From Eledone cirrhosa (Eukaryota), in assembly GCA_964016885.1 (NCBI GenBank), contig OZ024749.1:36332001-36396000 (forward strand): DNA of 64,000 nt, read 5' to 3'. Made by a program: the position numbers and the translations under genes. A model generated the notes under the pieces. It ran no database searches. It had not been told where the DNA came from and was given only the letters and a program-made list of their open reading frames with translations. Every line of letters begins with the position of its first letter. Within the stretch, counting starts at the first letter, position 1. Shown here piece by piece: positions 6,345 to 64,000 of the stretch.

Positions 6345-6688
6345 TCATTTCATCATCATTTCATTTTATGTTCGTTTTTTCCCTGCTTGCAAGGGTAGGA
6401 CGGGAACTGATTCTGGCTTGATTTCTACAGCTGGATGCCCTTCCTAACACCAACCTCATTTACAGTGAGTGCTGGGTGCTTTTTTGCCGTGGCACCTCCA
6501 CGACCACTTTGCAGTGGAATGATAGGGACCCCAGTCCCTATCATCTCATTTCTACAGCTGAGTAAACTGGAGCAATGTGAAATAAAGTGTCTTGCTCAAG
6601 GAAACAACACATCACCCGGTCTGAGTATTGAACTCACAACCTTTCGATTGCAAGGCCAATGCTCTAACCACTAAGCCATGTGCCTCCA
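6345..6688 (-). mobile_element. tRNA-derived SINE with RTE-derived 3' tail (family A)
   Basis: Minus strand has A box TGGCTTAGTGG, B-box-like GAGTTCAAT, central ccttgagcaagacacttta block, RTE tail and (GAT)n. Near-identical copies at 11655 and 36161. Confidence 0.9.
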
Positions 6689-6700
6689 TATATATATAAG

Positions 6701-7853
6701 TTGTTATACTTGGGGAGGGTCATATTTGTGTAATAATGTTGCCAGAAATAATAACAGAACAGAACACACTCACTGTTTGGTTGGTTTTCGCCTCTGTGTC
6801 TTTTATATCGGTTAATTTAATTTATTCGGTCCTCAATGTTACCATTGACTGACCAACGGTCAAAAATACAGATACAATATAGACACAAACACACATATAT
6901 ATAGTCTAACAAAGTTCTTTCATTGCACATCTGCAACATCATCAGTGGTGCTATTATGTTTCCTCCCGTTGCATTGTATGCCTACGCCATCTTTATTTAG
7001 TCTGTTTATTTATTTATTTATTTGTTTTTGTTTTTTTTTGTCTTCTCTGCGCATGCGTTTGCGTGTGTGTATAGTGTTTTGTTTGATGTGTGTTCGTGTT
7101 TGGGTGACTGTGTATTGGTTATTGTATTCTATCTTAGTTTACTAGTGTGTGTTTATATGTGTTTGTTGTTATTGTGCTTGTGTATGTATGTATTTATTTA
7201 TTTATTTATACTTCTCTTAGGTCAGTGTTGTTTGTTTGGGTGTTGTTGTTATTCCATTCATTTTTTCTGTTTAGCCTTGGCCTTCTAAGTTCTATATAGA
7301 ACTTAGAAGTATAAATAAATAAATACATACACAAGCACAATAACAACAAACACATATAAACACACACTAGTAAACTAAGATAGAATACAATAACCAATAC
7401 ACAGTCACCCAAACACGAACACACATCAAACAAAACACTATACACACACGCAAACACATGCGCAGAGAAGACACAAAAAACAAATAAATAAATAAATAGA
7501 CTAAATAAAGATGGCGTAGGCATACAATGCAATTGGAGGAAACATAATAGCACCACTGATGATGTTGCAGATGTGCAACGAAAGAACTTTGATAGACTAT
7601 ATATATGTGTGTTTGTGTCTATATTGTATCTGTATTTTTGACCGTTGGTCAGTCAATGGTAACATTGAGGACCGAATAAATTAAATTAACCGATATAAAA
7701 GACACAGAGGCGAAAACCAACCAAACAGTGAGTGTGTTCTGTTATTATTTCTGGCAGCATTATTACACAAATATGACCCTCTCCAAGTATAACAATATTT
7801 GTTTCGACACACATTTCATATAAAAAACCTCGCAAAACTAATTCATCGCCATT
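6701..7853 (+). mobile_element. Large fold-back element (Penelope-like inverted pLTR architecture)
   Basis: Inverted arms 6701-7215 and 7305-7795, unpaired tail 7796-7853, (TA)n on both sides. Hammerhead-like core at 7556-7583. Confidence 0.75.
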
Positions 7854-12010: not shown

Positions 12011-12195
12011 TAGAAGTGGTTACACAACAGTTAGTTCAGCATACCGAGAACAATTGTTTCACCTTAGCGGATCTTCAGCTCGCTAAGGTGAAACAATTGT
12101 TCTCGGTATGGTGAACTAACTGTTGTGTAACCACTTCTACCTAACTCGTCTGAGTGCTCTACTACTATGGATATTACCTTCCGGTGTTCTACCAC
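12011..12195 (+). mobile_element. Short fold-back element with hammerhead motif
   Basis: Arms 12011-12069 and 12081-12139, 56-bp tail, (TA)n flanks. Homologous to 60213-60351. Confidence 0.8.
12045..12082 (-). ncRNA. Minimal type I hammerhead ribozyme motif
   Basis: Minus strand cgag CTGAAGA t cc gctaa gg t GAAAC aatt GTT ctcg. Palindromic loop III. Confidence 0.65.
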
Positions 12196-12221
12196 TATAT
12201 ATATATATATATATATATAAA

Positions 12222-12378
12222 GAAAATGTTTAACCCCGACACCAGAGCTCAAGCCGTCGAAATGGCTTGAGCTCTGCCGTCGGGGTTAAACATTTTCCTA
12301 TGACCCACTCTACTACCCTAAGTATCGGGTACTCTGGTGCGTTATGGTCCATCTGGTTCCTTACCACACCTCCTTCGT

Positions 12379-22673: not shown

Positions 22674-22719
<46 letters not shown>

Positions 22720-22723
<4 letters not shown>

Positions 22724-22920
22724 AACGAGTAGGACCCCGACGGCTGAGCTCAAGCCGTTTCGACGGCTAATTCTGGACTAAAGCTCCAGAATTAGCCGTT
22801 GAAACAGCTTGAGCTCAGCCGTCGGGGTCCTACTCGTTCCTATTACCCACTCTACTACCCTAAGTATTGAGTACTTTGGTGCGTTATGGTCCACCCGGTT
22901 CCTTACCACATTTCCTTTGT
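22720..22920 (+). mobile_element. Short fold-back element
   Basis: Arms 22720-22777 and 22785-22842, ~78-bp tail, (TA)n flanks. Confidence 0.82.
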
Positions 22921-24409
22921 TATATATATATATATACATGTATGTTTGTATATATGCATGTATGAATGTGTATTTGTGTATTTGTGTATTTGTGTGTGTG
23001 TATTATATACAGACACATGCATATATATATATATATGCACACGTATATATAGTTATATGTATATATTTGTGTATGTATGCATTTTTGTTTAATTAAAATG
23101 TCATACAAGGAAAGTTTATCTAATTCTACAACAACAAAAATGTATGTATGCAAGAGGTGAAAAGAAGGGAGAGTGGCGGGTGTATAATATATTTTAACAT
23201 CTTTTCCTTGGTGCCCCAATTGTATTACTGGGTTTATAATTACTTTTCCCAGTCATGTGATATTTGCAATAAGCGACTAATTAACATGAATTCAATTTGA
23301 GAATCTAAAAACCTTTTTCGTTTGTCGATTTTCTTCTCAATTATTGCATTCTTGTGCTGTCATTGGTTTTTAGACGATGGATTCCAGATCGCTCACTGGA
23401 ATTGGTCTGTTTCTGTTCTGTTTCTCTAAATATCTTTTATTTCAAATCAATAAAAATTCAATATTGTCAGGTGTTTTCATTCATTTACACATTACACACA
23501 TACATAACATCCATTCCTGCTCTCATACACACACACATACGCATACATGCATGCATCCATATATGCATACATGCATATATGTATATGTATGTATTCATAT
23601 ATGCATACATGCATATATATATATGTATATGTATGTATTCATATATGCATACATGCATATGTATATGTATGTATGTGTGTGTGTGTATATATATATATAT
23701 ATAGATATATATATACTTACATACGCAAACCCTTAAAGACAAACATAGGTAATTGATGTCTAAATTCCAATGAAAGAGGCTTGTTTCTGTTAGAAACTGC
23801 TGTCTGTCTGTCTCTCTCTCTCGCCCCTCTCTCCCCCCTCTCTCTCTCTCGCCCCCCCCCTCTCTCTCTCGCCCCCCTCTCTTTCTCTCTGTGGAAATTC
23901 ATAAATAATAAAACCAGAAGATAGATATATAGTCATTCAGACATAGAGGAATTCAAGCACACATACATACACATAAATATATACATTCATATAGATATAT
24001 ATACACACACACACACACACATGTAACATACATACAAACACATGTATATATATACACATATATACCAAGAAAATTCTTAATGAAACAATTGATACCAATC
24101 AAATGTCCATTTTGAACATCTATATCTTCCTCTCCATCGGGGTTTATGGTCCTATATTACAAATGTTCTCTCCCTCACACATACACATACACACACATAC
24201 ACACACATACACATACACACGCATATAGGTGTGTGTTTGGTTTTTGTTTTTCCTCTCTATCTAACTTTCCTTTCATCTATGAGTAATGCAATCAAGTATT
24301 TGCACCTGACTTTTTAGCATGTGATACCTGGTGTAGAATTTTCTATACTGCCATATTTATATATATATATATATATATACACACGCAAACACACACACAC
24401 ATATATATA

Positions 24410-47241: not shown

Positions 47242-47289
47242 GTTGATTTTGAACAAGATTGGGAATATGAAGAAATTGCTTTGGAAAGG
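47242..47289 (+). CDS. dlg1: Internal coding exon of a Discs large (Dlg1/SAP97-like) MAGUK gene, segment preceding PDZ1
   Basis: Polypyrimidine acceptor ttctttttcAG and donor GTAAGT flank a phase 0-0, 48-nt exon encoding VDFEQDWEYEEIALER. This resembles vertebrate DLG1 VNGTDADYEYEEITLER and Drosophila Dlg VNGDDSWLYEDIQLER, which precede GNSGLGFSIAGG of PDZ1. Confidence 0.85.
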
Positions 47290-47612: not shown

Positions 47613-48263
47613 AAATGTCACCTGTTATTCCTCTGTCTTTATGTGGTATTTCTTCCCCTCATGTCGTGTCAGTGAAGGAATGTTAAATTCTGGGGCTGAA
47701 GAGAAGCCAGGGTCCCTGTTGAATGTGGTTGTGGTGAACAGATGATGGGTGTGTCATGGAGGGGGGGGGGGGGGGTTACACAAGATGAAGAGGTGATGTA
47801 AAAAAAAAACGAACACAGATATATAGATATATGTGTTCAAATCGTAAGGGACCTGATTCGCTAAGGTGAAAAGAATGCTAACTATAGACAATTGGGTTTG
47901 CTTGTCTCAATTTAAGAAAAAAAAATTAAGAAAATAAATACAAACCGGAATTGTGGTAACTACCACTCACCCAGACAACTTGTTGTTTCGCAAAGTTAAT
48001 TCTGAATAGAAATACCAACCCAAGCTCATCAGTGGGTGATGAATTAGTATCCTAGACACATCTAAGTATGCTATATATAAAATAGCACACATGGCATCCT
48101 AGCTTGTCTCACAAACCCATATATGCATATATATATATATATATATTAATAAGAGGAATTCCAACTTTGTCTGATTTACTCGTTTTATTTACAATCCTTT
48201 AAAATATATATAATGGTATTATAATGAAATAGTATGATAGAATATTAAATTCTAAGTGTTAAT

Positions 48264-48302
48264 TGAACAAGTACTTTCATGCTTTCGCAATCTTCAGGTT
48301 CA
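48264..48302 (-). ncRNA. Minimal type I hammerhead ribozyme motif (mirror copy)
   Basis: Minus strand tgaac CTGAAGA t tgc gaaa gca t GAAA gtac TT gttca. Confidence 0.68.
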
Positions 48303-48369
48303 TGATATGTGGTGACAGTCGAGTTTGCAATTTTCAGAAAATTGCAAACTCGACTGTCACCACATATCA

Positions 48370-48408
48370 TGAACCTGAAGATTGCAAAAGCATGAAAGTA
48401 CTTGTTCA
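48370..48408 (+). ncRNA. Minimal type I hammerhead ribozyme motif
   Basis: tgaac CTGAAGA t tgc aaaa gca t GAAA gtac TT gttca. Palindromic stem III/loop AGTACT. Confidence 0.7.
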
Positions 48409-48632
48409 ATTAACACTTAGAATTTAATATTCTATCATACTATTTCATTATAATACCATTATATATATTTTAAAGGATTGTAAATAAAACGAGTAAATCA
48501 GACAAAGTTGGAATTCCTCTTATTAATATAATCTTCTATACACAATCATACACACCCGTGTATATTTACCTATCTATATCTATATATATATATATATATA
48601 TATGCATATATATATATGCATATATGTATATA

Positions 48633-49070: not shown

Positions 49071-49288
49071 CCCTTTAGCATTTATATTACTCTATATTTA
49101 CTATTGTATTTTCACAATTAAGTCTTTACCTCACATAATTATCTCACATAATATCAAATCTATGAGATTTTGATATTTATTTTGAGAACAATACCTTAAC
49201 ATCAGTATGAGTGGCCAGTTACAGCCAGTTTGAACAGAAAGAAGTGAGGTAATTCTGGCCAGATACGGTCGGTTTAAATGCCAAAGGG
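49071..49288 (-). mobile_element. piggyBac-type MITE, same family
   Basis: TTAA-ccctttagcattta...taaatgccaaaggg-TTAA. Interior is the reverse complement of the 34979 copy. Confidence 0.88.
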
Positions 49289-49399
49289 TTAAAACTCCCA
49301 TATACACATATATACACCAGGTCCAAACACAAAAGAACCAAACACCCACTGTCACTGCCTCCGTCTCTCCCACTCTCCCCATTGCTCACTACTGTGTGC

Positions 49400-50461
49400 A
49401 AATGGGGGCCCATGCACTGGCCGCCTTGCAGCCCTTGTGGACAGTATAGAGGAGGTGTTTTCCTGGAGGGTGGTGAGGGAAATGAACTGGAAGAACCATT
49501 TGATCTCGCAAAGCTTACACTTGTGAGAAGCCAACTCTGTGCCAATGTTGGTGAGAAGGGAGGTGACCCTAGGGCCAAGGACACCAGAAGTCTCCACTAC
49601 CATGGGCTCGACTACAAACCTGTCAAAGAATGAGCGAGCTTTGGAGAATTTCAACCATTGATCCAAAGTTCTGCTGGATCAGAGTTGACCTGTAGCAAAC
49701 TCGATATATGCTAAGCTCAACATTTGCATTCCCACCAAACCCACTAAAATGTACACTTGTGAGAAGCCAACTCTGTGCCAATGTTGGTGAGCAGGGAGGT
49801 GACCCTAGGGCCAAGGACACCAGAAGTCCCCACTGCCATGGGCTCGACTACAAACCTGTCAAAGAATGACCGAGCTTTGGAGAATTTCAACCATTGATCC
49901 AAAGTTCTGCTGGGTCAGAGTTGACCTGTAGCAAACTCGATATATGCTAAGCTCAACATTTGCATTCCCACCAAACCCACTAAAATGTACACTTGTGAGA
50001 AGCCAACTCTGTGCCAATGTTGGTGAGCAGGGAGGTGACCCTAGGGCCAAGGACACCAGAAGTCCCCACTGCCATGGGCTCGACTCCAAACCTGTCAAAG
50101 AATGACCGAGCTTTGGAGAATTTCAACCATTGATCCAAAGTTCTGCTGGATCAGAGTTGACCTGTAGCAAACTCGATATATGCTAAGCTCAACATTTGCA
50201 TTCCCACCAAACCCACTAAAATGTACACTTGTGAGAAGCCAACTCTGTGCCAATGTTGGTGAGCAGGGAGGTGACCCTAGGGCCAAGGACACCAGAAGTC
50301 CCCACTGCCATGGGCTCGACTCCAAACCTGTCAAAGAATGACCGAGCTTTGGAGAATTTCAACCATTGATCCAAAATTCTGCTGGATCAGAGTTGACCTG
50401 TAGCAAACTCGATATATGCTAAGCTCAACATTTGCATTCCCACCAAACCCACTAAAATGTA
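49400..50461 (-). mobile_element. CRE-like endonuclease remnant with a 4 x 236-bp tandem amplification
   Basis: Minus strand reads FVVEPMVVETSGVLGPRVTSLLTNIGTELA...WFFQFISLTTLQENTSSIL. Units start at 49517, 49753, 49989 and 50225. Confidence 0.75.
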
Positions 50462-51736
50462 TTGTCGTTGAGAAAAAAAGATATATTTTGGTACCTTTCT
50501 TTTATTTTCTAAAATTCTTTTGACTAAAACTTTTGTAAAACTGGTTCTATCATAAAAAAAAAAAAACACAAGTTATTGCAACTCTTATCTCAGTTTTCTT
50601 CACAAAGTTTTTTTTAAATTCTTTTTCATCATATTTTAATTTTTTTTTACATCCATCAAAAACTCTTTGATCTCTCTTCATTTTTTTTGTTTTTGTTACT
50701 AGTTTTCATTCCTCCTCCTCTTTCTCATCATCCATCCCCTTCTCTCTCCTCCTCCTCATCATCATCATCCATCCCTTTCCTCCTCCATTATTTCTAAGTG
50801 CAACATGCAACATTAATTGCCTTTCTCCACTGGGTACTTCTCCCATCCCTTCCCTCCATCTTGATGTGGTGTTGATGATGGTGTGGTGGTGGTGGTGTGG
50901 TGTTGATGTGGTGGTGGTGTTGATGTGATGGTGTGGTGGTGCTGGTGTTGGTGTGGCAATGGTGGTGGTGTTGGTGTGGTGGTGGTGGTGTTGGTGTGGC
51001 GATGGTGGTGGTATGGATGTGGTGGTGGTGGTGTTGGTGTGGCGATGGTGGTGGTATGGATGTGGTGGTGGTGGTGGTGTTGGTGTGGCGATAGTGGTAG
51101 TATGGATGTGGTGGTGGTGGTGGCGATGGTGGTGGTATGGATGTGGTGATGGTGATGCGGTGTTGGTAGTGTTGAGATGGTGGTGGTATTGATGTGCTGG
51201 TGGTGGTGTTGGTGCTGATGTGGTGGTGTTGGTGTTGAGGTGGTGGTGTTGGTGCTGATGTGGTGGTGCTGGTGTTGGTGTTGAGGTCGTGGTGTCGGTG
51301 CTGATGTGGTGGTGTTGGTGTTGAGGTCGTGGTGTCGGTGCTGATGTGGTGGTGTTGGTGTTGAGGTCGTGGTGTCGGTGCCGATGTGGTGGTGGTGTCG
51401 GTGCCGATGTGGTGGTGTTGGTGGCGATGTGATGGTGTTGGTCTTGAGGTGGTGGTGTTGGTGTTGAGGTGGTGGTGTTGGTGCCGATGTGGTGATCTTG
51501 GTGGTGGTGTTGAGATGGTGGTCTTGGTGCCGATGTGGTGGTGTTCGTGGCGATGTGATGGTGTTGATGTTGGTGGTGATGATGATAGTAGCCACTATCA
51601 TCAGTCCAAGTACTTATCCCTCTTTATACCATCACAGCTCTTACATCAATTATATATAACTACTGTATAAATTGTTCAACACACACTCAAATGTTCTGGA
51701 TATATATGGAAGAAATGGAGAGCTTCTATATATATA

Positions 51737-51946
51737 TAGGAACCAGTAAGACCCCGACAGCTGAGCTCAAGCCGTTTCGACGGCTAATTCTGGACTAAAA
51801 ATAGTTTTTAGTCCAGAATTAGCCGTCGAAACGGCTTGAGCTCAGCTGTCGGGGTCTTACTGGTTCCTATTACCCACTCTACTACCTCAAGTATTGAGTA
51901 CTCTGGTGCGTTATGGTCCACCTGGTTCCTTACCACATTTCCTTCG

Positions 51947-51948
<2 letters not shown>
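51737..51948 (+). mobile_element. Short fold-back element with perfect 65-bp arms
   Basis: Arms 51737-51801 and 51805-51869, 3-nt loop, ~79-bp tail, (TA)n flanks. Confidence 0.85.
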
Positions 51949-51995
<47 letters not shown>

Positions 51996-52212: not shown

Positions 52213-52394
52213 GATAAATCTACCAAAAGTTTAAAATATAAGGAACTGTTTCATTATTTTATTCATTATTTTTTTAATATTTTATATATATATATATACT
52301 TATATATATATATACTTATATAAATATATATATATACTTATATAAATATATATATATACTTATATATATATATATATATATACTTATATATATA

Positions 52395-53670
52395 TCATCA
52401 TCATCATCATCCACGGCCTAGAATCAAAAGGCCTTAAAATTAACCTAGCTAAGACTAAAGTTCTAGTTTGTAAGAAAGAAAATAAGGCGGCGGTCCCCTC
52501 CGGGAAGTGGCCATGCGCAGAGTGTAGGAAAGGCGTAGGTAGAAATTCCATTTTGTGTCCCAAATGCAAAGTTTGGGTGCATAAAAGATGTAGTGGGATC
52601 ACAGGTAAGCTAACTAAGAACATAGATTTTACATGTGGCCGGTGTTCTGGGAATATAAGTAGCAGCAAGTGCCCACAAAATACTAGCTCTTTCAACTGCG
52701 CAGAGGGTTCTATAGAAATAGTGGACAGCTTCCGTTACCTGGGTGACAAAATCACCAGTGGGGGAGGGTGCTCTGAAAGTACAGTAGCTAGAGTCAGAAC
52801 TGGGTGGAAAAAGTTCAGAGAGCTTATACCACTATTAGCCGCTAAAGGGTTCTCCCTAAAAATGAAAGGCAGGCTGTACGATGCCTGCATACGAACAGCA
52901 ATGTTGCATGGCAGTGAGACCTGGGCATTGTGTGCAGAGGATATACGCAGACTAGAGAGAAACGAAGCTTGCATACTCCGCTGGATGTGTAACAGTAATA
53001 TACGTGAACGGCAAAGCATAAACGAACTAAGGAAAAAATTAGAAATAAGAGGGATCAGATGTTGTTTACTAGAGAGAAGGCTACGTTGGTATAGTCACGT
53101 GATGCGCATGAAGGATGATAGCTGTATAACAAAGTGCAGGGCAATAAAGATAGACGGTAGCCACGGAATAGGCAGACCTAGAAAAACCTGGAACGAGCTG
53201 ATAAACTCCGACCTCACACACTTACACCTCACCAAGACAATGTCACTGGACCGAGACCTTTGGCGGTACTCAGTAATAGAGAAGACCCGCCTTGCCAGTA
53301 GGCATCTCTAACAAAATACACCCCGTCCCACCACCACCACCACCCCCACCCCATCCACACCACCCCGTTCTATGTAAAGTTATGTTGGTGCCGCGCCATC
53401 CAGGCCGAAACAAATGAGATCGTGTAGGTGTCACGACAAAAAAACACACAGTCCACGCTGTAATGTGGCCGTGTAGGCAACACGGTAAAAACCTCCCAGA
53501 CCCACACTGTAAATGTGGTTGGTGTTAGGAAGGGCATCCAACTGTAGAAAACCTGCCAGACAGTCCTATGCGAGCAAGAAAATCACTCTTGCCTCAAGTG
53601 GGACTACCCCCGTCCAAACCCATGCAAGCATGGAACACGGACGTTAAACGTTGATGATGATGATGATGAT
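52395..53670 (+). mobile_element. 5'-truncated RTE-clade LINE: end of ORF, 3'UTR and (GAT)n tail
   Basis: Open frame 52412-53311, then a structured 3'UTR ending acgttaaacgtt(gat)n. Flanked by a ~185-bp direct duplication. Confidence 0.92.
52412..53311 (+). CDS. C-terminal part of RTE LINE polyprotein (end of RT, PHD finger, thumb/C-terminal region), no start codon
   Basis: GLKINLAKTKVL, a C4HC3 motif, IEIVDSFRYLG, MLHGSETW, RRLRWYSHVMRM and GRPRKTW are typical RTE motifs. No stop codon over 299 codons. Confidence 0.9.
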   Translation, partial: HGLESKGLKINLAKTKVLVCKKENKAAVPSGKWPCAECRKGVGRNSILCPKCKVWVHKRCSGITGKLTKNIDFTCGRCSGNISSSKCPQNTSSFNCAEGSIEIVDSFRYLGDKITSGGGCSESTVARVRTGWKKFRELIPLLAAKGFSLKMKGRLYDACIRTAMLHGSETWALCAEDIRRLERNEACILRWMCNSNIRERQSINELRKKLEIRGIRCCLLERRLRWYSHVMRMKDDSCITKCRAIKIDGSHGIGRPRKTWNELINSDLTHLHLTKTMSLDRDLWRYSVIEKTRLASRHL

Positions 53671-58840: not shown

Positions 58841-60212
58841 TAGTGGTATGGTGGCAGCAGTAGTCTACTGGTAGTGAAGGTATTGTAGTGGTGATATGAT
58901 GCTGACAGTACTGTAGTTTTGGCAGTGATGGCAGTGGTATTGTAGCGTTGGTGGTGGTAAGGTGATAGTAGTAGTAGTAGTAGTTCTGTGGCTGGTGGTG
59001 GCAGTGATAGTAATCTAGTAGGTAGTGTAGTGGTTTTGGTGTAGTAGTGGTGGTATTTTTAGTTATAATTGGGTAATGTTGATATGGTGGTGATTCAGGT
59101 AGTCGAAGAAGTGATGTGGTTGGGGTAGTAGTGGTGGTGGTGGTGGTATGTTTACTGGGGCGGAACTTACTTCAGGCTAAACAACAATATCAAGCAAGGA
59201 CACATTAGATAATGTAGTCCTAGTTGCACTGTGTCTGTAAAAAAAACATCACCACTACCACCACCATCCACCACCACCATCACCACCATCCATCACCACC
59301 ACCACCATCCATCACCACCACCACCATCACCAGTAACAATTGTGCAGCCACTTCTAACACCACCACCACCACTATCAACAACAGAACTACCACCATCATG
59401 ACCACTACAATGACCATAGACACTATCACCATTACCACCACCACCACTGCAACCATGTCCACAACCACCACCATAACCACCTTTACCACCACTACCACAA
59501 CCACCACATCCACTGTGATCATCTTCACCACCACCACCACCATGGCTATCACCACACACCATGACCACCACCACCACCACCACGGCTACCACCACCACCA
59601 CCATGGCTATCACCAGACACCATGACCACCACCACAGCTATCACCAGACATCATCATCACCACAACCACCACCACTACCACTACCTTGATCACCACCACC
59701 ACAACCACAACCATGACCACAACCACCACCACTACCACTACCTTGATCACCACCACAGCCACCACCACAACCCCCCCCCCCAGACTATCTCAATCAACCA
59801 AAGGTTAATTTCATTAGTATCTCCAATCTCCATCATTCTAATCACCTAACGAGGAATCATGATCGTTAAAAGGTCAACAAAACTATTTAACATTTTCACC
59901 TTAATGAACATTTGGGGGTTTTTTTATAAGTTTTCTTTAAGTTTTGTTTTGAATTTTATTTTCTAAATATTTTCTTTATTTAATTTTTATATAATTCGTT
60001 TGTTTCGCTAACTTTAAAATATCTTTTGTTTTAATTCTGTTGATGGTGTGATGGTGGTGGTGTGTTGGTGTGGTGTGTTGGTGGTGGTGTTGTGTTGTTG
60101 TGTTGTGTTGGTGTGTTGTGATGGTGTTGGTGGGGTTTGTTTTATTTGTAATTCTTTGCCTTTTATATATTTCTACTGCATTGTACCAATTTTCTGAAAC
60201 TTCCGATTTAAA

Positions 60213-60253
60213 CCGAGCTGATGATCCATTAAGGTGAAACAATTTGTCCTCGG
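60213..60253 (+). ncRNA. Minimal type I hammerhead ribozyme motif
   Basis: ccgag CTGATGA t cc attaa gg t GAAAC aattt GTC ctcgg. Stem I ccgag/ctcgg, complete core, GUC cleavage triplet. Confidence 0.75.
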
Positions 60254-60348
60254 AAATGGTAAACTAACTGTTGTAGAACTACTACTACCAAACTCATCCC
60301 ATGGACTGAGTGCTCTACCTCTGGATATAACCCACCAGTGTTCTGCCA

Positions 60349-60400
<52 letters not shown>

Positions 60401-60404
<4 letters not shown>

Positions 60405-60589
60405 AAGAAGTGTAAGTCAACAGGTTAAAATTAACTTCGTTTATATGAATAAACAAAGTTAATTTGAACCTGTTGATTTACACTTCTTGTTTTTAAATTG
60501 CTCTGGAGTAAACAGCACTTGTGCACCTCGTTGAGTGCTCTAACCTGCATACTGAAATGACTGTAACCAATCAACACATACTCAAATTT
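60401..60589 (+). mobile_element. Fold-back element
   Basis: Imperfect arms 60401-60444 and 60449-60492, ~97-bp tail, (TA)n flanks. Confidence 0.7.
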
Positions 60590-60596
60590 ATATATA

Positions 60597-62340: not shown

Positions 62341-64000
62341 AAATTTAATTTTTTTTTTTTTGTTTATTGCTTTACCTCTTTAGTTTCCCTTTTTCTCCAT
62401 AACCATTAGTCTCCATTCTTTAACCCTATTCTTCACATTTGTTCAACCTCCAACCCCGGATTTTAACACTATACCAATATTTCTTCGGCTAATTCTTATG
62501 CTATATTTTCATCCATTCTTTTGTTGTTTAGAGGGATAAATTTTTTGGAAATATCACCTGAAATATAAAGCAGTCTCCGTTTGTCATTTTCGGAAATGGT
62601 TAGAACATTTCCAGAAATTCTTGCTATTATCTAACATCACGTCTTTAGAGCTATAACAACATAAAATAAAAAAAAAATGTACTTTTCCTTATTGATTCTG
62701 TTTTCCATCTTTTACTGTTCTTCATTGATGTGGTTCCTTCTCAGAATGTATTTACTGGTTGTGGTGATGGTTGGTGGTGGTGGTAGTGTTGGTGGTGATG
62801 GTTGGTGGTGGTGGTGATGGTTGGTGGTGGTGGTAGTGTTGGTGGTTCACGTAATGATGGTGGTTGGTGTTGCAGTGATAGTAGTTATTAGTGTAGGGGT
62901 TGTAGTGGTGGTGGTGGTTGCTGTAGCAGTGGTGGTAGTGGATGTCAACTGCTATCACAAACTTCTAACTTGATGGCTGTGACATTACTACATTATGACA
63001 GCTTTCTAGTTGTTGTTGTAGTGTTGTTGTTGTTGTGTTGGTGGTGTTGTGGTGGTGGTGTTGTGGTGGTGGTGTTGTGGTGGTGGTGTTGTTGTGCTGG
63101 TGGTGTTGTTGTTGTGCTGGTGGTGTTGTGGTGGTTGTGTGGTAGTGGTGGTGTTGTTGTGTGGTAGTGGTGGTGTTGTTGTGTTGTTGTTGTGGTGGTG
63201 GTGGTGGTTGTGATGTGCTGGTGGTGGTGTTGCTGTGCTGGTGGTGTTGTTGTGGTGGTGGTGGTATTGTGGTGGTGGTTGTGTGGTGGTGGTGGTGGTG
63301 GTGTTGTTGTGGTGGTGTTGTGGTGGTGTTGTTGTGGTGGTGTTGTGCTGCTGCTGGTGGTGGTGTTGTGCTGCTGCTGGTGGTGGTGGTGTTGTGCTGG
63401 TTTTGTTGTGGTGGTGTTGTGGTGGTGGTGGTGGTGTGGTGGTGGTGGTGTTGTGGTGGTGGTGTTGTTGTGGTGGTGGTGGTGTTGTAGTTGTGGAGCT
63501 GCTAGTGTTTTAGGAGACATGATGTGAGGGTTACATGACAAGTTCTCTGTTCCCACTCTTGCGTTCTTTTTATCATTTCTGATATTTCAGAAAAATAGTA
63601 TTCTATTCAGTAGGGTATATAAACGGTGGTGGGTCAGGATATAAAACGTGGTAGGGGTGGATAATGATATTTTTTCTTTGTCTTTCTTTTCTCTCATCCC
63701 CCTCTTCCTGTCCCTTTTCTTCCCCCTCTTACTCCTCTGTTGAGGGATTGTGATAGTAAATATCAGATTTTTTCCAACCACTGACTCTGCTGATACTTCT
63801 AGCTACATCTGGAATGGTAGGAATATCTGATGGAGATTGTTGACAGGTAAAGGGTTGGCATGGTGGAAGTTTGGATGGTTGGATAAATGGATGCTTGGAT
63901 GGTTGGCTGGATGGTTGATAATCAGATGGGTGGTCCGCTGATGGTTGACTGTATGATTGATATGATGGAGAGAAGAAAGATGTATCATGGGATTGTTAGA

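Follow-up and report, generated by a model that had tools for sequence, protein, structure and literature searches.

The question raised by this locus is whether a short segment of Eledone cirrhosa DNA is a complete self-cleaving ribozyme and, if so, where it comes from and whether it could act on a gene. We analysed the whole stretch of 64,000 nucleotides in which it lies (hereafter the window), and Table 1 collects the features discussed. The segment is an intact-looking minimal hammerhead motif of type I. The best explanation, which we consider probable, is that it heads a 145-nt repeat copy (the 60-kb copy) which is what truncation left of a Penelope-like element (PLE), namely its 3' end (pLTR), inserted into (TA)n and nearly silent when alone.

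Table 1. Positions in the window of the hammerhead motif, the repeat copies and the neighbouring features.
Feature	Positions	Strand	Basis or detail
Exon candidate, 48 nt, 16 codons, AG/GTAAGT	47242-47289	+	splice signals
Type I minimal hammerhead motif	60213-60253	+	sequence, pattern descriptor, fold computation
Helix I	60213-60217/60249-60253	+	5 Watson-Crick pairs
Core CTGATGA	60218-60224	+	sequence
Helix II region	60225-60235	+	U60225-U60235 base, then 2 C-G pairs, 5-nt loop
GAAAC	60236-60240 (GAAA 60236-60239)	+	sequence
Loop	60241-60245	+	sequence
Near-palindromic helix III	60239-60247	+	sequence and fold computation
GTC triplet	60246-60248	+	predicted cut after C60248
Whole repeat copy, likely 5'-truncated 3' end/pLTR of a Penelope-like element	60206-60350	+	longest contig pieces
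(TA)n microsatellite, putative insertion target	60352-60401	.	sequence; reported PLE (TA)n preference
Fragment of a different repeat family, adjoining the 5' edge	60135-60202	.	contig alignment
Inverted, tail-less family copy, then (TA)n	12011-12082	-	homology; arm alignment
Full core of the 12-kb inverted copy	12082-12045	-	CTGAAGA, 8-nt perfect helix III palindrome, GUU, 4-bp helix I
Direct 5'-truncated family copy, 3' half of ribozyme only, then (TA)n	12081-12196	+	homology; arm alignment
Tail of the 12-kb direct copy, 56 nt	12140-12196	+	arm comparison

Regarding the anatomy of the motif, the core letters quoted in the earlier note match the sequence, and all the invariant positions are present (C3, U4, G5, A6, G8 and A9; G12, A13 and A14; the A15.1-U16.1 pair; H17). 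Helix I joins the 5' and 3' ends of the motif, as type I requires, and the scissile bond would fall where that note had put it, after the C of the GTC triplet. The hammerhead had also been called complete, which is right for the core and for helix I but not for helix II, whose two base pairs on a U-U lie outside the published consensus: against that of Cervera 2014 it lacks G10.1-C11.1 and is shorter than 3 bp. The helix III palindrome has an odd length and a U-U at its centre, and it is of the kind that permits dimers in the same consensus; the extra T in this copy leaves the monomer with a helix III of 3 bp.

The motif belongs to a longer repeat. The 5' edge of this copy lies at about 60203-60209 and its 3' end 103 nt beyond the cut site. 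A single sample, sequenced in three runs, supplied contigs that aligned to 60135-60352 at 80% likeness; there were 1383, 1316 and 1250 of them per run, some of which belong to the upstream repeat at 60135-60202. The longest aligned pieces extend from 60204-60209 to 60344-60350, and behind 60202 there are 68-77 loose contig ends per run, where other copies go on with unlike sequence. The summed contig depth, which is not a copy number, was about 58,000 over the core and about 225,000 over 60295-60310, with 11.4 for the exact-match contig; in this one sample the family is very abundant. A search of sequencing runs listed no RNA run that carries it. Within the window it has two members and forms no tandem array, and there is also a short degenerate match to its helix II/GAAA segment at 47844-47861 (83% over 18 nt).

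The contigs also describe how the other copies vary. A T stands at 60248 in 79-83% of the contig depth covering the helix III region, so that the triplet is GUU there and GUC in the 60-kb copy, and one T at 60245 is absent in 43-49% of it, which restores a perfect helix III palindrome as at 12 kb. In the substitution table U16.1 (60247) has zero rows, and G16.2 and the 3' positions of helix I have low-level changes, the highest at a CpG. The table lists no substitution at 60215-60242, although the 12-kb copy differs there at three places. It thus under-reports at the core, and for this reason we give little weight to the core conservation that it displays.

The second member of the family is a hairpin at 12 kb. 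The earlier note had described the 60-kb copy as an un-inverted member of this family, with some 100 bp homologous to 12081-12195 and followed by (TA)n, and all of this was borne out: 60230-60350 aligns to 12084-12196 with 78% identity over 123 columns (E 1e-21), 60214-60287 aligns to 12082-12011 on the minus strand with 82% over 74 (E 4e-14), and the (TA)n run lies directly behind the repeat copy. The 60-kb copy is the un-inverted form of the family. What did not hold is that it is the monomer from which the hairpin was folded. The arms of the hairpin are identical to each other at 58/59 positions but to the 60-kb copy at 57/72 and 93/115, around 80%, and the minus arm has a full core of its own; therefore the 60-kb copy is a relative and not the parent.

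The arms overlap by a self-complementary CG of 2 nt at 12081-12082, and (TA)n adjoins all three 3' ends of the family, that is, the 60-kb copy and both 12-kb arms. We suggest that two cDNAs, started at different sites and each on its own strand of the target, were linked through the CG overlap to give the hairpin, because the PLE of Anolis extends both strands from two internal RT starts (PMC11167929, in the portions available). The alternative is a fold-back, by self-priming, of one monomer like the 60-kb copy. The near-identity of the arms would fit it, and such self-priming, with an antisense template, is one proposal for how the inverted junctions of PLEs form (PMC3846280, likewise in part). 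Nevertheless, the identity of about 80% excludes the 60-kb copy as the literal parent. Furthermore, the arms differ in content, the 5' half of the core being on the inverted arm and the tail on the direct one, and both end in (TA)n; two joined cDNAs are a simpler account of unequal arms with (TA)n at both ends. A snap-back after which one of the tails was trimmed is a possible origin, and overall we hold the fold-back to be quite unlikely. The junction offers a clean case for two-cDNA joining as against self-priming in PLE inversion.

We also asked whether the motif could be a chance resemblance, or the family one whose ribozyme died long ago. A type I descriptor (core plus helix I of at least 5 bp) was run on the 64-kb window and on 300 block-wise dinucleotide shuffles. 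The real window gave two matches on the plus strand (60218+ and 48375+) and one on the minus strand (48297-), against a mean of 0.0 per shuffled window at helix I of at least 5 bp and 0.0033 at at least 4. An Rfam scan of the whole window gave no match at the gathering threshold, the best local match at the motif being Hammerhead_HH9 with 16.5 bits (E 0.13; gathering score 52), and the fold z-score was -0.03. Such a low score, the flat z-score and the off-consensus helix II are what a chance or dead motif would give. Against this, none of the 300 shuffles matched, the 60-kb and 12-kb cores differ only at tolerated positions, and the U-U base of helix II is found again in an unrelated family at 48.3 kb. 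We regard a chance or dead motif as very improbable.

The comparison of the cores is based on a single pair of copies. Between the 60-kb copy and the 12-kb minus arm, 5 of 39 motif positions differ (N7, two in loop II, one in loop III, and H17), and all of them are tolerated positions (P = 0.0014-0.0035 when each base is counted; 0.006-0.012 when the differences are taken as 4 events). Over the 98 nt downstream, the alignment of 100 columns shows 14 substitutions, and 12 of its columns are gaps. Since the differences in the core are confined to tolerated positions, it is likely that the ribozyme was under selection in the master elements of the family; this selection is not placed in the 60-kb copy itself.

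Other collections were scanned with a hammerhead pattern. Metagenome contigs gave one match, L001 368-398 (-), which we discarded as a chance match lying inside a C-terminal-protease-like ORF of a bacterial operon; the operon ORFs, named from their translations, are presumably phosphoglycerate-mutase-like, EnvC-like and C-terminal-protease-like. Viral contigs gave 0 matches, and neither the metagenome nor the viral contigs contained a true relative of the family.

As for the element that carries the ribozyme, membership in the PLEs is argued from architecture, because we saw no RT or GIY-YIG ORF linked to the family in the six-frame ORF lists of the window and the collection scans yielded no true relative. 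Pfam on 25 selected ORFs of the window gave only PHD-like matches, on a LINE-like ORF, and a search of the supplement text of Craig et al. for two motifs of the family found neither. According to the available parts of PMC8557442 and PMC3846280, inserted PLEs have lost 5' sequence, lie next to an inverted copy, carry a tail on one side only and are biased to (TA)n, and excerpts of PMC8969392 give the same form with a neighbouring inverted copy that is 5'-truncated. The family follows this closely. Its hammerhead lies near the 3' end, with 103 nt from cut site to (TA)n in the 60-kb copy and 94 nt in the 12-kb copy; 12011-12196 combines an inverted, 5'-truncated copy with a tail on one side only; and the target is an AT-rich microsatellite at all three 3' ends of the family in the window. 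The layout of fold-back, tail and (TA)n recurs in three other families of the window, two of them with hammerhead parts. Further points go against this assignment: the 12-kb tail exceeds the 30-40 bp described for PLEs (PMC8557442, in part), and helix II is shorter than in any of the 56 examples in the supplement of PMC4209133, which by eye have at least 3 bp (the shortest, 3 bp) and no U-U base in the part available.

A different reading replaces the variable truncations of a long PLE by a non-autonomous element of about 145 nt that borrows the enzymes of PLEs, either SINE-like or belonging to the dispersed monomers of non-LTR retrozymes. The longest relatives also start at 60204-60209 (few loci, one sample), the 12-kb inverted arm ends at the equivalent of 60214, and retrozyme monomers are genome-wide and related to pLTRs (bioRxiv 10.64898/2026.07.22.740005, in part), all of which speak for it. 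However, there is no tandem array and the 64 kb hold two members, the copy spans the cut site rather than running from cut site to cut site, and the inverted form with a tail is a hallmark of PLEs. The contig depth also rises about 4-fold from the core to the tail region, as 5' truncation would give, which is a weak point. We consider this reading rather unlikely and keep that of a truncated PLE 3' end. The 60-kb insertion then likely arose by target-primed reverse transcription of uncleaved RNA into (TA)n; both sides of the cut site are kept in the copy, which would mean that the template RNA was uncleaved.

Regarding activity, the computed energies, which leave out tertiary and non-canonical core contacts, do not favour a lone copy. 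With nearest-neighbour energies the monomer has -2.7 kcal/mol in the hammerhead fold and -6.2 kcal/mol in the misfolded MFE, a gap of 3.5 kcal/mol. Pairing of two copies through the helix III palindrome would build a double hammerhead, for which we computed -13.7 kcal/mol against a dimer MFE of -15.4. The pair probability of helix III was 0.01-0.09 in all 5 contexts computed, and that of helix I fell from 0.99 for the 41 nt alone to 0.01-0.05 with the natural flanks. The helix III self-duplex has -4.1 in the 60-kb copy and -6.4 in the perfect palindrome at 12 kb, and the heteroduplex of both segments only -2.7. These folds agree with the published behaviour of min-HHRs, which showed no activity as monomers and little as dimers (PMC4209133, in the sections available). 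The earlier proposal to test the motif as a dimer as well is well founded. From the models we predict that self-cutting of the lone 60-kb copy is rare or absent, and that its ribozyme would cleave solely as a dimer or with the help of protein, an isolated copy being nearly silent. A functional variant, with a helix II of U-U plus 2 bp, that cleaves as a dimer and is maintained by selection in a retroelement of very high copy number seems to us unlikely, albeit conceivable; if true, it would lower the known minimum for natural hammerheads and imply very many latent ribozymes in the introns of this genome.

The possible host gene is the next point. The window has two candidate exon intervals, one in Table 1 and the other inside a minus-strand LINE-like ORF. 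Only the former is a strong candidate, and we take it to resemble the stretch of Dlg before PDZ1. Searches for a Dlg identity of 47242-47289 gave 0 matches in Pfam, 0 in PDB and 0 in a library of 1.84 billion proteins, and a motif text search was blank; these blanks say little because the query has only 16 coding residues. A following exon with the start of a PDZ domain was sought up to the end of the window at 64000 and none was found. The hammerhead had been said to have the same sense as the Dlg exon: the shared + strand is correct, and the name Dlg comes from the likeness just given, the database checks on it being blank. The ribozyme would be intronic and sense provided that the putative host gene continues.

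An active intronic ribozyme could then cut a Dlg-like pre-mRNA, in cis or in trans with another copy. The exon candidate is on the same strand with its donor 12.9 kb upstream, the extra T supplies the monomer with three pairs in helix III, and the copy has GUC where most contig depth has GUU, GUC being the better hammerhead triplet. On the other side, the natural flanks leave the active fold as no more than a minor state, the window offers no free compatible partner on the + strand, and the 12-kb half is locked in a hairpin of -101 kcal/mol and would give only the weak helix III heteroduplex. Furthermore, min-HHR monomers were uncut (PMC4209133) and the cleavage of intron hammerheads spared splicing in work cited by PMC2995048, both sources being available in part. 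Because the fold is poor, no free partner is near and intronic cleavage spared splicing in that cited work, an effect of the 60-kb copy on the host pre-mRNA is, on these models, unlikely, and the active intronic ribozyme is the most improbable of the explanations that we weighed. It would matter more if the copy cut the pre-mRNA of a neuronal gene, but nothing here supports that.

The 60-kb motif is one of many remnants, since the window contains six further ones with fold-backs or hammerheads (12222-12372, 22719-22921, 51736-51955, 48142-48561, 60395-60590 and a longer-stemmed core at 48032 (-)); beyond the 60-kb copy we counted four more full cores and several half-cores. The first three form one family of fold-back, tail and (TA)n with the 3' half of a hammerhead, which has a long helix III, a palindromic loop and GUC; the 5' half is lost at the junction, and the cut site is 97 nt ahead of (TA)n in all three copies. 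A snap-back at helix II as the origin of this second hairpin family was dropped, as the junctions are unlike between copies.

At 48142-48561 there is a fold-back of 389 bp (99%) with two full minimal hammerheads of another family (48297-, 48375+), which have a helix II of U-U plus 3 bp, a 6-nt helix III palindrome and a CUU triplet; with its one-sided tail of about 31 nt and its (TA)n flanks it looks like a textbook inverted PLE end. The computed energy of its double hammerhead is -12.2 kcal/mol, and an Rfam E-value scan of 47900-48450 gave only miRNA-type matches to the long hairpin, all under gathering. Another type I hammerhead, at 47967-48039 (-), has a helix I of 7 bp, a helix III of 5 bp, GUC and a helix II region that is long and starts from a G-C base. 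As a monomer it seems more promising than the 60-kb motif, but it is antisense to the exon candidate and has no Rfam match. The element at 60395-60590 is a fold-back with a tail of about 90 nt on the same (TA)n run as the 60-kb copy, to whose tail it has a weak likeness of 21 nt (E 0.008); this suggests several insertions into one microsatellite at 60352-60401.

Other repeats of the window are of a different nature, and the repeat landscape as a whole resembles that of an octopus genome. A 321-codon stop-to-stop frame at 52346-53308 (+) has sub-threshold PHD-finger matches in Pfam, and what comes after the PHD-like part looks like the C-terminal region of the RT of an RTE-type LINE. At 49250-50390 a unit of about 236 nt is repeated in tandem with an open frame, apparently a LINE-like coding fragment with no significant Pfam match, and the six-frame lists point to a local inverted duplication of about 450 nt at 6667-7140 and 7209-7790.

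We can now compare the motif with known systems. Its best Rfam match, Hammerhead_HH9 (RF02275), is an intronic hammerhead ribozyme (HHR) of amniotes, with which it shares the type I topology and a putative intronic position. The likeness ends there: the score is 16.5 against 52 bits, the 60-kb motif lacks stable helices and a loop-loop contact, and it is a repeat, whereas Hammerhead_HH9 is conserved and single-copy. With the animal non-LTR retrozymes (bioRxiv 10.64898/2026.07.22.740005, as far as available), of whose copies in Xenopus about 42-44% are intronic, it has in common the type I HHR in a short repeat that codes for nothing, the kinship to pLTRs and the existence of dispersed monomers. 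Retrozymes are tandem by definition, and the 60-kb locus has a single copy with no tandem HHR units and a PLE-like tail at (TA)n.

The likeness to PLEs goes further. According to the excerpts of Frangieh et al. 2024 (PMC11167929), PAc, a Poseidon PLE from Anolis, makes a nick in each strand of its target and extends from both. Its RT begins at two internal sites and prefers unprocessed RNA, and its HHR cleaves only with protein. As in PAc and in the EN+ PLE inserts of Craig et al. 2021 and Arkhipova et al. 2013, the HHR lies about 90-100 nt upstream of the 3' end, the target is AT-rich, and there are an inverted 5'-truncated copy, a one-sided tail and an uncleaved genomic HHR. Unlike in these, the frames close early at the 60-kb HHR and no ORF start survives, and the 12-kb tail has 56 nt instead of 30-40.

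Finally, the min-HHRs of metazoan PLEs are the closest group. According to the available parts of PMC4209133 there are thousands per animal genome; some are single motifs, "probably related to truncated PLEs", others form pairs on opposite strands separated by 100-700 bp, and helix III is palindromic. The consensus places G10.1-C11.1 after an extra nucleotide; none of the 56 examples listed there in the available supplement is from a cephalopod. Literature on octopus and hammerheads gave no description of the 60-kb family, which leaves its absence unproven, and Lunse et al. 2017, as cited in the portion of PMC6765202 available, report short variants of the PLE hammerhead whose cleavage takes place in dimers, so this work may already cover the form with U-U and a 2-bp helix II. 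The significance is accordingly narrow, minimal hammerheads in truncated Penelope-like ends having been published; standard descriptors would miss this family, however, because its helix II is outside the published consensus and its score below the Rfam thresholds. With the min-HHRs of Cervera & de la Pena 2014 the 60-kb motif shares the CUGANGA-H...GAAA-N-palindrome-NUH core, the helix I of 4-5 bp, the palindromic helix III/loop 3, a U17 that is common, the occurrence as dispersed singles and opposite-strand pairs, and the predicted activity as dimers only. It departs from them in a helix II of 2 bp on U-U instead of G10.1-C11.1 and at least 3 bp, and in having no ORF linked to it here. The arrangement, a minimal hammerhead in a truncated PLE end, is a known one, massive and widespread in animal genomes.
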